Part shown: piece after piece, positions 12,501 through 16,122 of the stretch | How positions within the stretch are numbered: position 1 is the stretch's first letter | Layout: every line of letters starts with the position of its first letter | DNA from: an uncultured archaeon | GTDB lineage: Archaea > Thermoproteota > Nitrososphaeria > Nitrososphaerales > Gagatemarchaeaceae | Direction: 5' to 3' | Assembly: GCA_963817525.1 (NCBI GenBank) | Contig: CAWFOU010000007.1 | Span: forward strand, 256,001 to 320,000 | DNA length: 64,000 nt | Notes under the pieces: model-generated | Told to the model about the DNA's origin: nothing | The model's database searches: none | Seen by the model: the letters and a program-made list of their open reading frames with translations, nothing else | Program-made: the position numbers and the translations under genes

Positions 12501-13399
12501 CTACTTTCCCGACGCGCTCTTGCTCGAGGACGGGGAGGCCCAGTCGTAGAACCCTTTCCCGGACTTTCTTCCTAGAAGCCCAGCCCTGACCATCTGCTTG
12601 ACGAGGGGGCTTGGACGATATTTGGAGTCCTCGAACTCCTGCATGAACACCTCAGAGATCCCAAGGCCGTGTCGAGGCCGACGAAGTCGAGGAGCTTCGA
12701 GGGCCCCATCGGCCAGTTGAGACCCATGGTCACGGCCTTGTCGATGTCCTCCGGGTCCGCCACCCCCTCGCTCACGAGGAGAGAGGCCTCGGTGAGGGCG
12801 GGGAGGAGTATCCTGTTGACTATGAAGCCTGGCGAGTCCTTCTTGCAGAGGACGGTCTCCTTTCCCATCTGCTTCGCGGCGACCCTGATCGACTCTACGG
12901 TGGAGTCGGAGGTCTTGGCGCCTCGGATGACCTCGACGAGCGGCATGAGCTGCGGGGGGTTGAAGAAGTGCATCCCAGCGACGTTCTCGGGGTTCTTGGT
13001 CGCGGAGGCGAGGAGCGTGATGCTGATCGAGGAGGTGTTAGAGGCGAGTATCGCGCCCGCGGGGAGGTGCTCGGAGATCTTCCGATAGAGGTCGAGTTTG
13101 AGCTTCGGGTCCTCCGATGCCGCCTCGATGACCAGCTGCGACTTTTCGACGGCGGCCTTGAGGTCAAGAGCCGGGTGGATCCTGGCGAGGATGTCGTCGG
13201 ATTTCTTCTTGTCCATGCCACCCTTCGCGACGAACTTCGCGAGGCTGTCCCTGATCATGGACATCCCCCTGTCTACGAACTCCTGCTTGACGTCGAGCAG
13301 GGTGACGTCGTACCCGGCGGTCTGGGCGCACACCTGCGCTATGCCGTGCCCCATCAAGCCCGCGCCGATCACGGTCACCCTCTTGATTTCGGGAGCCAT
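12501..13399 (-). CDS. 3-hydroxyacyl-CoA dehydrogenase (frameshift near 12660)
   Basis: [22 protein letters not shown] and GFIVNR motifs; the C-terminal GRKSGKGFY lies in a shifted frame ending at 12501. Confidence 0.92.
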
Positions 13400-13483
13400 G
13401 GTGCCACGCTCCAGGGAGCCGGTAATAATGGTTGGGAAATACCGGTGAACACATAAAAGCCAATTCGAGCTTGCCAGAGTTGC

Positions 13484-13600
13484 GCGGGGGTAGCAGAGTG
13501 GTCCGTCTAACAGACCCACAATAATGCGCGGGCCTTGAGTCTCACCAGAGACAGCCTGTGACCCATCCGGGTCTCGTGGGTTCGAATCCTACCCCCCGCG
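13484..13600 (+). tRNA. tRNA-Ser(TGA) with two introns (D-loop 13504-13521; anticodon loop 13540-13552)
   Basis: Acceptor GCGGGGG/CCCCCGC with discriminator G; D-arm GCAGAGTGGTC^TAATGC; anticodon stem CGGGC/GCCTG with loop CT-TGA-G^A; long variable arm; T-arm GTGGG-TTCGAAT-CCTAC. Confidence 0.9.
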
Positions 13601-13606
13601 CTCAAG

Positions 13607-14398
13607 TCAATATCTACCGAGAGCTGTAGGCCTTAGTGCCGCCTGTAGCCGTTCTTGTTTCCTCTTTATGGCGAAACCCACTAGTCGATTGAACTCCGAC
13701 AAAGATGTCGTCCTTACGTAAACTTCGTAACAATCGCGCCGTCTCAGGTAAGTCCTCCCTCTGTTTGAGATTTCCGAGCCTGCTTCTTTTTGGAGGTGCG
13801 GGCCCGTTGTTCCAATTCCCAGGGACGACAAGAGTCGGCGCACATATCTCAGCAAAGGGAGATTGGAATTCCAGCATGTGAGCTTTCTCCCCGTGATGCT
13901 TCCTTCGGAGTCGAAGAAACCTCTTAGGAATCTTCCCATGCAGTCGGGACAATGTTTGATGAATAGTTTGAATCTCTTCCAATCTCTATTTAGAAACTCG
14001 TAAAGGAGTACGCTCCTCGCTTCGATGGAAAAATCCCCTCGCCTCTTGTCAAACCATGGCGTGTGCGTCCTAGTCCCGAGTATCTTTGACAAGCAGCGAT
14101 CAAACTCCATGACGAAGTCCAAGTCTATTGCCGATAGCCGTATCCTTCGATTGTAGCCCTTCCTTGTTATTGAGCCGTCCCCTAGCTCGACTCCAATCAC
14201 GTAGGCAAGCTCTGGGCTAGGCTCTGGAGAGAAGTAGTTCGCACTTCCAAGAGGGCTGTGGATCTCTCTGAGCCATTCCGAGATTTGTCCTTTGGATGTT
14301 TTGAAGCCAGTCTCCCGCAGCAGGGTCTCGGCTATCTTGTTGTAGCTCATTCCGTCGGCTCTCAGTTCTTTGGCCCGCTCATTCGCACGGACTCTCAT
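13607..14398 (-). CDS. Free-standing two-motif LAGLIDADG homing endonuclease with N-terminal HTH
   Basis: Motif 1 LAYVIGVELGDGS and motif 2 FLRGFFDSEGS; N-terminal GMSYNKIA...SKGQISEWL HTH; visibly AT-richer than flanks. Confidence 0.9.
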   Translation of the reverse strand: MRVRANERAKELRADGMSYNKIAETLLRETGFKTSKGQISEWLREIHSPLGSANYFSPEPSPELAYVIGVELGDGSITRKGYNRRIRLSAIDLDFVMEFDRCLSKILGTRTHTPWFDKRRGDFSIEARSVLLYEFLNRDWKRFKLFIKHCPDCMGRFLRGFFDSEGSITGRKLTCWNSNLPLLRYVRRLLSSLGIGTTGPHLQKEAGSEISNRGRTYLRRRDCYEVYVRTTSLSEFNRLVGFAIKRKQERLQAALRPTALGRY

Positions 14399-14535
14399 TG
14401 CTAGAGGATGGTAGGACCTCGGCTCAGGGCACTTACTCGGAGTTCGCACTCAACACGAGTGCTAGTCCGTATTTAACGGCCACTCTCCCGCGGCGAAGTC
14501 AGATAAACCCCGGAGACCCTGAGAGTTGTCTACCA

Positions 14536-15687
14536 TTGAAGTTCCTGGTCATAGGAGGGGGGATAAGCGGGCTCTTTCTGTCGTACTACCTCCTCGAGGC
14601 GGGGGACGAGGTCGTCGTCGCGGACGCCCCCAAGGGGCCCGTCAGGACCTCCGCCTACAACGCGGGCCAGCTCTCGACCCGCCCCTCGTTCACGGACATC
14701 TACGCCCCCTCCGAGATAGTGCGCATCTCCGCGCGCGAAAGGCGGCTCAACCGCGGGTGGTTCGCGCTCGCGCGCAAGCAGAACCGCGAGAGATATGAGG
14801 AAATTGCGTCCGCCCTCGCGGAGCGGAGCCTCGCGCTATACGGCAAGTTCTTCGCGAAGGAGAGGGCCAAGGTCGACCTGACGGCAGAGGTGCTGGAGCT
14901 GCACTCGAAGCTGCGGAGCGAAAGCAGCCCCGAGCCCGGGGCGCGCTTCCTGGGCCCGAGCGAGCTCGCGGACGTGGGATACAAGGGCTTCGAGGGAGGA
15001 TGGCTCATTGAGGAAAAGTCCCTCCATTCAAGGAAGCTGCTCGACCACCTGACGTCGAGGATAGCCGAGATGGGGGGCAGGGCAGTCGAGGGCGACGTGC
15101 GCCTAAAGAGGAGTGGATCGCGCATCGCGCGGGCCGTCATCGAGGGCGAGGGATTGGTGGCCGACGCCTACGTCGTGGCGGCTGGCTCGTGGAGCCGGGA
15201 GGTCTGCGCGCCCCTCCGATACGACCCGATGGTCATCCCGGCGAGAGGCCTGGTCCTGTTCTACCGGACATGGGGGGAGAGAGCGGTGGACTATCCGGCG
15301 CACTACGAGGACGAGGGGGTGACCGTGACGCAGCACGATAGAGACACCGTCCGCTTCACCAGCTTCTTCGAGCTCGTCGGCTTCAACCCGCGATTCGGCC
15401 GGGCCAGGACTGACTGGCTCTTCGAGACCGTGACCTCGCATTTTTCCAGGCAGACGAAGCTCGAGTCCAACGAGGTCGGGGTGGGCTACCGCCCTTCGAC
15501 CCCCGACCAGCTCCCGGTGATGGGGCGGATCCCCCGCTGTGAGAACGGGTACATCCTTACTGGTTCGACGAGGAAGGGGATGGCCCTCGCTCCGGTCCTG
15601 AGCCAGCTGTTAATGGGCATCATGCTCGAGTCGGGCAAGAAGGACGACCCCCTTCTCCGGGCCATGGACCCCGCGAGGTTCGCGTGA
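14536..15687 (+). CDS. FAD-dependent oxidoreductase (DAO/DadA family)
   Basis: GGGISGL FAD motif, TSAYNAGQL, AAGSWS, GYRPSTPDQLPVMG. Confidence 0.85.
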   Translation: MKFLVIGGGISGLFLSYYLLEAGDEVVVADAPKGPVRTSAYNAGQLSTRPSFTDIYAPSEIVRISARERRLNRGWFALARKQNRERYEEIASALAERSLALYGKFFAKERAKVDLTAEVLELHSKLRSESSPEPGARFLGPSELADVGYKGFEGGWLIEEKSLHSRKLLDHLTSRIAEMGGRAVEGDVRLKRSGSRIARAVIEGEGLVADAYVVAAGSWSREVCAPLRYDPMVIPARGLVLFYRTWGERAVDYPAHYEDEGVTVTQHDRDTVRFTSFFELVGFNPRFGRARTDWLFETVTSHFSRQTKLESNEVGVGYRPSTPDQLPVMGRIPRCENGYILTGSTRKGMALAPVLSQLLMGIMLESGKKDDPLLRAMDPARFA

Positions 15688-15738
15688 GGCCGCCCTACGT
15701 GCCAAAGTTTTAAGCAGCTGCGAAAAGCGGCCCTCGTC

Positions 15739-16122
15739 ATGGCCGGCGCCGACGATTTCATCGCCCTGATAGAGAGCATGGGGAGGCGGGTCTTCGTGAC
15801 CGACGACCTAGTCGACCTCCGACAGCTCGACCAGCCCAACGAGATCTACGTCCTCCAGATGCTGAGCGTCTCCACGGCCGCGGGAGGGAGGGGCGGCGGC
15901 ATGGGCGACAGGAAGGTCGTCAAGGTCTACCACTTCTCGTGCGGCCACGGGGAGTGCAAGAAGGTGGGCGAGGTCGAGGACGAGGGGAAGATCGAGAGCC
16001 TCGACCTGCCATACCACGCGACTGCGTTTCCCATCCTCCTGCCCGATGGGCGGGAGAAGCTGGTCTCCGGGGTCACCGACAAGTCTCTCACGGCCTCGTA
16101 CCTGGCCGCGCTGGGCGTATAG
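15739..16122 (+). CDS. Conserved hypothetical protein
   Basis: Clean 127-aa ORF with host-like codon usage, downstream of TTTAAG box. Confidence 0.65.
   Translation: MAGADDFIALIESMGRRVFVTDDLVDLRQLDQPNEIYVLQMLSVSTAAGGRGGGMGDRKVVKVYHFSCGHGECKKVGEVEDEGKIESLDLPYHATAFPILLPDGREKLVSGVTDKSLTASYLAALGV

Follow-up and report, generated by a model that had tools for sequence, protein, structure and literature searches.

Free-standing LAGLIDADG endonuclease genes at the 3' ends of archaeal tRNA genes

A two-intron tRNA gene and a convergent endonuclease gene

The stretch analysed here, called the window, comprises 64,000 nucleotides (positions 256,001–320,000, forward strand, of contig CAWFOU010000007.1, assembly GCA_963817525.1) from an uncultured archaeon of the Gagatemarchaeaceae. 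It contains a tRNA-Ser(UGA) gene with two introns (13484–13600, forward strand) and, next to it on the reverse strand, a gene for a free-standing, single-chain LAGLIDADG homing endonuclease of 263 amino acids (13607–14398). The two genes converge: the stop codon of the endonuclease gene (13607–13609) faces the discriminator base of the tRNA, a G at position 13600, across a spacer of six nucleotides (13601–13606) that is read directly from the sequence. The endonuclease belongs to a family of stand-alone proteins, and this family and its relation to tRNA genes are the subject of the present analysis.

The endonuclease gene has its own start and stop codons, is intergenic, lies on the strand opposite to the tRNA gene and has no extein flanks; it is therefore a separate open reading frame (ORF) outside any intron or intein, as had been predicted. 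The frame of 263 amino acids starts at an ATG. The region preceding it (14399–14544), which also contains the upstream region of the next gene, holds an alternative GTG start at 14449, apparent from the sequence and the ORF list, that would yield 280 amino acids. The protein matches the Pfam family LAGLIDADG_3 (PF14528) above its cut-off, with an E-value of 2.9e-15, and contains two LAGLIDADG motifs, formed by residues 64–75 (14174–14209, reverse strand) and 157–167 (13898–13930, reverse strand). Among 25 aligned homologues, the catalytic residue of the first motif, D74 (14177–14179), is invariant, and that of the second, E165 (13904–13906), is conserved in at least 90%.

By profile comparison, the closest relative of solved structure is I-DmoI (E 4.5e-12, the match being restricted to profile positions 63–208). 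The same protein heads the fold search made with a structure model of the window protein (predicted local distance difference test, pLDDT, of 91): the template-modelling (TM) score is about 0.7 when normalised to the target, at a sequence identity of about 20%, and the top 28 matches listed are all I-DmoI chains. The model predicts the pseudo-dimeric alpha-beta-beta-alpha-beta-beta-alpha fold of the LAGLIDADG class. At the amino-terminus, residues 2–43 (14270–14395, reverse strand) are modelled as a three-helix extension resembling a helix-turn-helix (HTH) domain, with helices at residues 2–14, 19–30 and 36–43; the extension has no counterpart in I-DmoI and no Pfam family matches it over its cut-off. 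The homologues are likewise stand-alone proteins, 240–340 amino acids long in a search confined to lengths of 144–461, and carry the database labels 'DNA endonuclease', 'intein-encoded DNA endonuclease-like protein', 'LAGLIDADG family homing endonuclease' or hypothetical.

The G+C content is 0.48–0.54 across the endonuclease gene, against 0.59–0.68 in the flanks, and the dip is confined to about 13550–14450. The original prediction, an AT-richer HTH-LAGLIDADG gene that converges on the tRNA gene and keeps both catalytic acidic residues, is thus borne out by the G+C dip, the Pfam match, residues D74 and E165 and the model. No repeat of the tRNA end was found around the endonuclease gene, in agreement with the earlier statement that no duplicated tRNA end is visible. 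An integrase-borne island was also considered and ruled out by the single-gene unit, the conserved host flanks on both sides and the lack of a repeated tRNA end.

Rfam family RF00005 spans its whole model on 13484–13600 with a score of 37.3 bits (gathering score 29, E 6.3e-6). In the alignment, the D-loop has an insertion of 21 nucleotides, the anticodon loop has 16 nucleotides instead of the model's 3, and the variable arm is long. A search with a 36-base pattern found orthologues in 12 other genomes, and the limits of the introns were taken from orthologues lacking each insertion. The D-loop intron ('I2') has 18 nucleotides (13504–13521, forward strand) and is bounded by the orthologues of genomes G006, G012, G004 and G050, which lack it; the anticodon-loop intron ('I3') has 13 nucleotides (13540–13552, forward strand), occupies the canonical position 37/38 and is bounded by those of G013, G009, G012 and G001. 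The anticodon is UGA, for serine, because the anticodon loop reads CUUGAGA in orthologues without the 37/38 intron. The precursor of 117 nucleotides is predicted to fold into a cloverleaf with one additional hairpin for each intron (-52.6 kcal/mol, z -3.5), that of the D-loop intron with a bulge of three nucleotides at the 5' splice site. Rfam, the orthologues and the sequence itself thus agree with the tRNA-Ser gene that had been proposed, with its two introns, its discriminator at 13600 and the endonuclease stop six nucleotides away.

The acceptor stem of the window gene is GCGGGGG/CCCCCGC (13484–13490 and 13593–13599), as opposed to GCCGGGG/CCCCGGC in all 12 orthologues, a compensatory swap of base pair 3-70. 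With default settings, ARAGORN calls no tRNA in the entire window; with introns allowed (aragorn -i), it recovers the tRNA-Ser(UGA) gene under the wrong label Val(cac), and across the genome it makes several implausible calls with introns of 300–1700 nucleotides. Both ARAGORN at its defaults and Rfam overlook tRNA genes with several introns. About 46 tRNA genes are expected in such a genome. Rfam finds just 27 in that of the window, which is 95% complete, and 11 of the 27 exceed the length of an uninterrupted tRNA; many tRNA genes of this genome seem to be heavily interrupted.

The gene upstream of the tRNA encodes a 3-hydroxyacyl-CoA dehydrogenase (12572–13402, reverse strand; NCBIfam E 4e-84) and the gene beyond the endonuclease a flavin adenine dinucleotide (FAD)-dependent oxidoreductase (14545–15687, forward strand; NCBIfam matches); both are regarded as host flanks. 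The dehydrogenase is 87–88% identical in G006 and G012, two genomes without an endonuclease at tRNA-Ser(UGA). In G006, the FAD oxidoreductase starts about 80 nucleotides past the tRNA gene with no endonuclease between them, and the spacer cannot be aligned with that of the window.

Other differences surround this locus. The FAD oxidoreductase is 73% identical in G006 and missing from G012, where the tRNA gene is followed directly by a homologue of the ORF at 15739–16122, among neighbouring genes that are 87–91% identical. In G006, about 750 nucleotides separate the start of the dehydrogenase gene from the tRNA gene, compared with about 80 in the window, and contain no match to the endonuclease. 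The space past the tRNA gene varies in more than the presence of the endonuclease. Within the dehydrogenase, the family match ends after about residue 250 of 276, and public contigs differ from the window by single-nucleotide insertions or deletions (indels) at 12659, 12698 and 12701; the assembly probably has indel errors in 12572–12720.

Family members at tRNA 3' ends across archaea

The genome of the window (G000; 2.8 Mb in 15 contigs) contains three members of the family, and all three converge on tRNA 3' ends, within about 110 nucleotides. The copy on contig 1 faces an intron-bearing tRNA-Cys(GCA) and that on contig 7 an intron-bearing tRNA-Ser(GCU), ending about 50 and 90–110 nucleotides beyond the tRNA 3' ends. 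ARAGORN labels the tRNA of contig 1 as Arg; U73 and the orthologues identify it as Cys. By our arithmetic, based on the roughly 46 tRNA genes expected in 2.8 Mb, such adjacency would arise by chance with a probability well below 1% per copy. Each of the two additional copies (C1:706266-706999 and C7:848246-848973) is split across two reading frames. Programmed frameshifting was considered as the cause, but the breaks are at different residues and some may be assembly indels. A weaker LAGLIDADG match (E 6.5e-5, G000:C1:934808-935218) lies within a frame of 1129 amino acids and probably represents an intein of a large protein.

The survey for the family beside tRNA genes, proposed together with the original prediction, was extended to 80 loci, of which 75 have at least 100 nucleotides of 3' flank and could be evaluated. 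A convergent tRNA was counted if it ended between an overlap of 110 nucleotides with the endonuclease ORF and 200 nucleotides past its end. Scanning was done with a custom script for the T-arm and acceptor stem, and multi-intron cases were assigned by eye or with Rfam. Such a tRNA lies at the end of the ORF in 58 of the 75 loci (48 by script and 10, mostly multi-intron, by eye or Rfam); the same scan of the 5' side, used as a control, finds a tRNA within 200 nucleotides in only 1 of 69. The tRNA association that had been anticipated is therefore evident both in the window's genome and among the related loci. Partners are tRNAs for Ser, Cys, Tyr, Pro, Thr, Arg, Asp, Glu, His, Ala, Gln, Gly, Val and both elongator and initiator Met, the ARAGORN labels for some intron-bearing partners being unreliable. 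Related loci occur in Nitrososphaerota (Thaumarchaeota) that do not oxidise ammonia, such as 'Candidatus Gagatemarchaeum stordalenia', and more distant homologues in Aigarchaeota/Caldarchaeales, Thermococcus, Archaeoglobaceae and Methanocaldococcus. In a tree of 80 distinct copies, clades match the identity of the partner tRNA, and one clade, starred in the tree, unites every copy that adjoins initiator tRNA-Met, whether from Thermococcus, Methanocaldococcus or Archaeoglobaceae.

Within the genus of the window's genome, the family is present in 19 of 22 other genomes, frequently in several copies, and no match at E ≤ 1e-5 was found in the remaining three, which are 70–88% complete. In 16 other families of the order, a single genome gave a match, in a frame of 1149 amino acids. 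Of 28 loci from other genomes (L007–L034), 22 have a convergent tRNA at the end of the ORF; of the remainder, two meet a thiolase gene at its 3' end in convergent orientation, one reaches the contig end, one has a flank of only 117 nucleotides, one has nothing at this position and one is the 1149-residue frame. Twenty further places (L048–L067) comprise 10 with a convergent tRNA, two with a tandem downstream tRNA, three with a thiolase gene and five that are fragments or unclear.

The thiolase-facing loci L024, L026, L059, L062 and L063 form a clade whose convergent neighbour is not a tRNA but a thiolase-like gene (Thiolase_C_1, E 1.2e-29), approached at its 3' end; in L059 the endonuclease and thiolase ORFs overlap by 12 nucleotides. 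Locus L135, from the Nitrososphaeria, also faces the end of a protein-coding gene, thiolase-like by eye. At L021, L029, L030 and L081 the order is signal recognition particle (SRP) RNA, tRNA-Ser(GCU), endonuclease, with the archaeal SRP RNA gene about 60–120 nucleotides 5' of the tRNA where both coordinates are known (L021 and L029). In six loci of Nitrososphaerota (L130, L111, L120, L096, L093 and L147), the endonuclease frame stays open for 60–100 nucleotides across the antisense strand of the tRNA gene; if this frame is really used, the protein tails would be encoded opposite the tRNA.

At the tRNA-Ser(UGA) site, compared in 13 genomes, four have an intact endonuclease, two (G013 and G015) a carboxy-terminal remnant of 50–60 codons adjoining the tRNA, and seven none. 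At tRNA-Cys, 15 of 18 evaluable loci of the genus, out of 19, contain an endonuclease or a remnant. The G000 and G008 tRNA-Cys loci share sequence up to about 4 nucleotides past the tRNA gene according to BLAST, or about 30 by eye, and again beyond the cassette. Stops and fragments are found among the family copies of many genomes.

The turnover is most evident in Thermococcus, where the same initiator tRNA is present in all 62 species genomes and the family in 34. All 39 match rows lie downstream of the initiator tRNA on the same contig, at 400 nucleotides or less in 33 of the 34 genomes. The gene is convergent in 22 genomes, typically 51–69 nucleotides from the tRNA, and in tandem orientation in 12, at 163–187 nucleotides, several copies being broken or fragmentary. 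Mapped on an RpoB tree of the 59 scored species, the state of the locus (none, convergent or tandem) changes at least 17 times, compared with 26 times on average and never fewer than 21 when labels are shuffled, and sister species differ from each other, orientation included. The encoded CCA is absent from most convergent alleles and present in cassette-free and tandem alleles, which places the junction of convergent alleles at tRNA position 73/74; the far end of the cassette lies just before a promoter-like TTTTTAAA element of the next gene.

The same intergenic space shows further features. At L190–L219, two lineages of the family occupy it in opposite orientations, the tandem lineage terminating exactly at the promoter-like element, and a short conserved trailer motif follows the initiator tRNA in both types of cassette. 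A near-empty allele, L199, retains about the last 17 nucleotides of the tandem ORF.

In one metagenome-assembled genome (MAG) of the Aigarchaeota, three copies with 78–80% protein identity lie at tRNA-Ser(GCU), tRNA-Pro and tRNA-Tyr and represent recent spread inside one genome. The DNA similarity between two of these copies, L076 and L088, extends through the 3' untranslated part and ends at the base adjoining the tRNA discriminator.

The ratio of non-synonymous to synonymous substitution rates (dN/dS) could be calculated for 15 pairs of intact copies; it is 0.05–0.36 in 14 of them and 0.54 in the remaining one, the youngest pair. Two more pairs, not included in the 15, were saturated. Between genus copies sharing one locus the ratio is 0.12–0.19. 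These values indicate that intact copies are under purifying selection, which is also what a domesticated LAGLIDADG protein would show, acting for the host at tRNA loci as a regulator, a terminator or roadblock, or a guard nuclease. The near-fixation of the gene at tRNA-Cys of the genus, the clades that follow tRNA identity and host clades, the additional HTH-like domain and the precedent of WhiA, a domesticated LAGLIDADG fold that appears at rank 45 of the fold list, all fit such a role, and tRNA genes are in any case common integration sites. However, a host function is hard to reconcile with the retained catalytic residues, the numerous broken or fragmentary copies, the lack of a match in three of the 22 further genomes of the genus and in 28 of the 62 Thermococcus species, the repeated state changes and orientation swaps between Thermococcus sisters, and the near-identical copies at three different tRNAs of one genome. 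We regard domestication as quite unlikely. The kept catalytic residues, patchy distribution and broken copies also set the family apart from the WhiA-like regulator that the original prediction had named as one outcome that would refute it.

A third possibility is that the family, once mobile, is stranded in the genus of the window, where it would now be inherited vertically and decay slowly, the window copy having stayed intact by chance or lost its activity only recently. In different species of the genus, copies at the same tRNA are only 55–58% identical, and the nearest protein beyond the window protein's own cluster, among 5.8 billion proteins, is 67% identical, both in keeping with this reading. 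When contigs from four of 17 public sequencing runs were compared with window positions 12600–15700, none was found to link the tRNA gene straight to the downstream gene, a blank that does not amount to evidence; the sole joints, all within the dehydrogenase gene, stem from other organisms or are short-sided. One relative from a public run (X5, about 94% DNA identity) retains the endonuclease gene, which differs from that of the window at 16 of 302, 9 of 211 and 9 of 235 positions, a divergence similar to that of the flanks (31 of 469 and 33 of 459). Against a mere relic, the dN/dS values of 0.12–0.19 at one locus and the conserved catalytic residues argue for maintained function, and in other lineages the family is shown to be active by the Thermococcus turnover and the multicopy spread in Caldarchaeales. 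This explanation is considered unlikely.

Introns of the partner tRNAs

The window tRNA is one of a set of alleles with variable intron content: among the 13 genomes, introns occur in tRNA-Ser(UGA) at four sites, namely position 8/9, the D-loop, position 37/38 and the T-loop. In G015 all four sites are occupied. Alleles with the 8/9 intron have an extra copy of the 7-nucleotide acceptor sequence immediately upstream and a different upstream (promoter) region.

In collaborative homing, the endonuclease would cut the intron-less tRNA gene at the intron site; the intron would protect its own allele and be co-converted, and so spread together with the endonuclease. The four-site variation is in keeping with this, as is the distribution of the D-loop intron in tRNA-Ser(UGA), which is found in all six alleles with an endonuclease or remnant compared with three of the seven without. 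The allele types are discordant with the RpoB tree, and the two nearest relatives by RpoB, G006 (98%) and G012 (97%), have neither the D-loop intron nor the endonuclease, a co-absence that is suggestive. In any homing event, furthermore, a tRNA gene of 117 base pairs lying six nucleotides away would be expected to be co-converted.

Elsewhere the correlation breaks down. All three partners in the window's genome contain introns, which says little because this genome is rich in tRNA introns. Among the 48 partner tRNAs detected by the script, 26 have intronless length; those of Thermococcus are all initiator tRNAs of 75 nucleotides, and those of Methanocaldococcus and Archaeoglobaceae are likewise intronless initiator tRNAs. 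For tRNA-Cys in the genus, nine loci have both an endonuclease or remnant and an intron, six have an endonuclease or remnant only, three have an intron only and none has neither; in four genomes (G007, G015, G010 and G001), an intact endonuclease lies beside an intronless tRNA-Cys of 72 nucleotides. Even for tRNA-Ser(UGA), the closest homologues from outside the genus (L071, L072 and L078) lie beside a tRNA that lacks the D-loop intron. Tests with independent pairs on the RpoB tree, numbering just three for Ser and two for Cys and hence too few for significance, give p ≥ 0.5 and opposite directions: on average, 1.7 of the three Ser pairs go the same way and 1.2 of the two Cys pairs the opposite way.

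Introns are thus unneeded for coexistence with the endonuclease and at most carried along by co-conversion. The intron correlation that the original prediction called for is in general missing, and the collaborative-homing part of that prediction fails with it; the tRNA-Ser(UGA) locus alone may differ. We consider collaborative homing very unlikely as an account of the family. Of the proposal that the enzyme targets the intron-less tRNA gene and that introns immunise the host allele, the tRNA locus as homing site is supported by the adjacency, but introns as immunity or as co-mobile partners are not upheld in general. The unlinked tRNA-Ser(UGA) locus, suggested as another target, was not found: the pattern search for a second 3' half in the window's genome returned one match only.

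A probable homing cycle and its known counterparts

Taken together, the observations suggest that the family probably consists of selfish, free-standing homing endonucleases that target the 3' flanks of tRNA genes, and whose own insertion destroys the target. Patchy presence at a conserved site, combined with decayed copies, is the pattern of a homing cycle and is found both at tRNA-Ser(UGA) and in Thermococcus. We propose that the single-gene cassettes, residing 0–200 nucleotides downstream of tRNA genes and mainly convergent with them, encode an enzyme that would recognise and cut cassette-free alleles at a site spanning the tRNA 3' end and trailer, and that repair of the double-strand break from a cassette-bearing allele would then copy the cassette in. 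Insertion of the cassette would replace the trailer, together with the encoded CCA in most convergent Thermococcus alleles. Because the trailer half of the site is replaced, the target would be destroyed and the host allele would be immune without introns; because the cassette lies just outside the tRNA, the mature tRNA would remain intact. A half-site made up of the conserved T-arm and acceptor stem would lead to fidelity to one tRNA across distant hosts, with occasional jumps. In the genus of the window, the cassettes would be old residents at tRNA-Ser and tRNA-Cys, intact in some species and decayed or lost in others. The end of the L076/L088 similarity at the tRNA 3' end and the CCA replacement in Thermococcus may be read as indirect signs of such homing.

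Several findings weigh against this proposal. A convergent tRNA is not seen at 17 of the 75 evaluable loci, one clade faces a thiolase gene, the distance between gene and tRNA ranges from an overlap of 103 nucleotides to about +200, and tandem-orientation lineages occur. No pair of near-identical alleles differing solely by the cassette was found in the genus, where the 'empty' alleles are diverged, and the public runs gave no cassette-free joint. The tRNA-Cys locus of G008 is perhaps not truly empty, since its filler of 346 nucleotides has a marginal profile match (E 0.006 over 18 frames). The two split copies of the window's genome may be assembly errors rather than decay, given the single-nucleotide indels that the window shows relative to public contigs. 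Endonuclease clades of the genus track tRNA identity and roughly the two host clades, and vertical descent of a useful gene would yield the same pattern of clades and selection.

The introns of the partner tRNAs may be co-converted along with the cassette, outside the mechanism proper. By repeated gene conversion, the endonuclease could drag whole tRNA alleles, introns included, between strains of intron-rich lineages and so serve as the missing vehicle, at the DNA level, by which short archaeal tRNA introns are spread and reshuffled. Such conversion would have left its footprint in the four polymorphic intron sites of tRNA-Ser(UGA) and in their disagreement with the host tree. This extension of the homing proposal is rather doubtful.

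Homing endonucleases usually hide in introns or inteins, which makes their insertion harmless. The family described here apparently reaches the same end by landing one base past the end of a tRNA, among the most conserved targets of a genome. If cleavage is confirmed, this would be a new niche for selfish genes in archaea and a source of many natural LAGLIDADG specificities, easily predicted as tRNA end plus trailer. It would also provide a testable DNA-level route for tRNA alleles and introns between strains, and would explain why some Caldarchaeales MAG assemblies break at tRNA loci, an impression that rests on no count. The subject should be of interest to those who study mobile elements and archaeal tRNA genes. 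It is testable in Thermococcus: the family is present in single-contig genomes of about 2 Mb from this genus, and experiments may be feasible if these belong to cultured strains. A literature search that reached few subscription journals and no supplements found no account of LAGLIDADG genes beside tRNA 3' ends in archaea, and neither introns nor endonucleases are mentioned in the Gagatemarchaeaceae genome paper, whose text was searched for these terms.

Like I-DmoI, the window endonuclease is an archaeal single-chain protein whose two LAGLIDADG motifs each contain an acidic residue. I-DmoI is encoded within an intron of the 23S rRNA gene of Desulfurococcus mobilis and homes with this intron, whereas the window gene stands alone outside the RNA gene and encodes the extra N-terminal three-helix domain. 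The resemblance to WhiA lies in the combination of a LAGLIDADG fold with an HTH domain, and WhiA structures appear at ranks 45 and 47 of the fold list. In WhiA, the HTH domain is C-terminal, the catalytic residues have been lost and the protein is universal in its lineage; the members of the window family, by contrast, carry their HTH-like part at the N-terminus, retain the catalytic residues and are patchily distributed, with pseudogenes among them.

The elements known to target tRNA genes include integrase-borne islands and viruses at tRNA 3' halves, as well as the retroelements Ty3 and Dictyostelium TRE, for which these genes are conserved and safe landing sites. They rely on an integrase or on reverse transcription, and their insertion duplicates the tRNA end or overlaps with it. 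The unit in the window, in contrast, is one LAGLIDADG gene without an integrase or a repeated tRNA end.

In collaborative homing, the intron interrupts the target of the endonuclease; examples are mobE of phage T4 with the I-TevIII intron and the psbA intron of cyanophages with a neighbouring free-standing endonuclease. The arrangement of a free-standing endonuclease beside an intron-bearing gene, also called trans homing, is treated in PMC2790892. The family described here departs from it in that about half of the partner tRNAs are intronless and the correlation fails at tRNA-Cys.

SegB, a GIY-YIG enzyme of a phage, is said to promote inheritance of a tRNA region. It lies among the tRNA genes of phage T4 (PMC13096335). 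With SegB and the free-standing endonucleases of the T-even phages, the window family shares the stand-alone intergenic gene beside conserved genes and the expected co-conversion of flanking sequence. It differs from SegB in being of the LAGLIDADG class and chromosomal, in occurring in several archaeal phyla, and in its fixed position at the 3' end of one tRNA gene.

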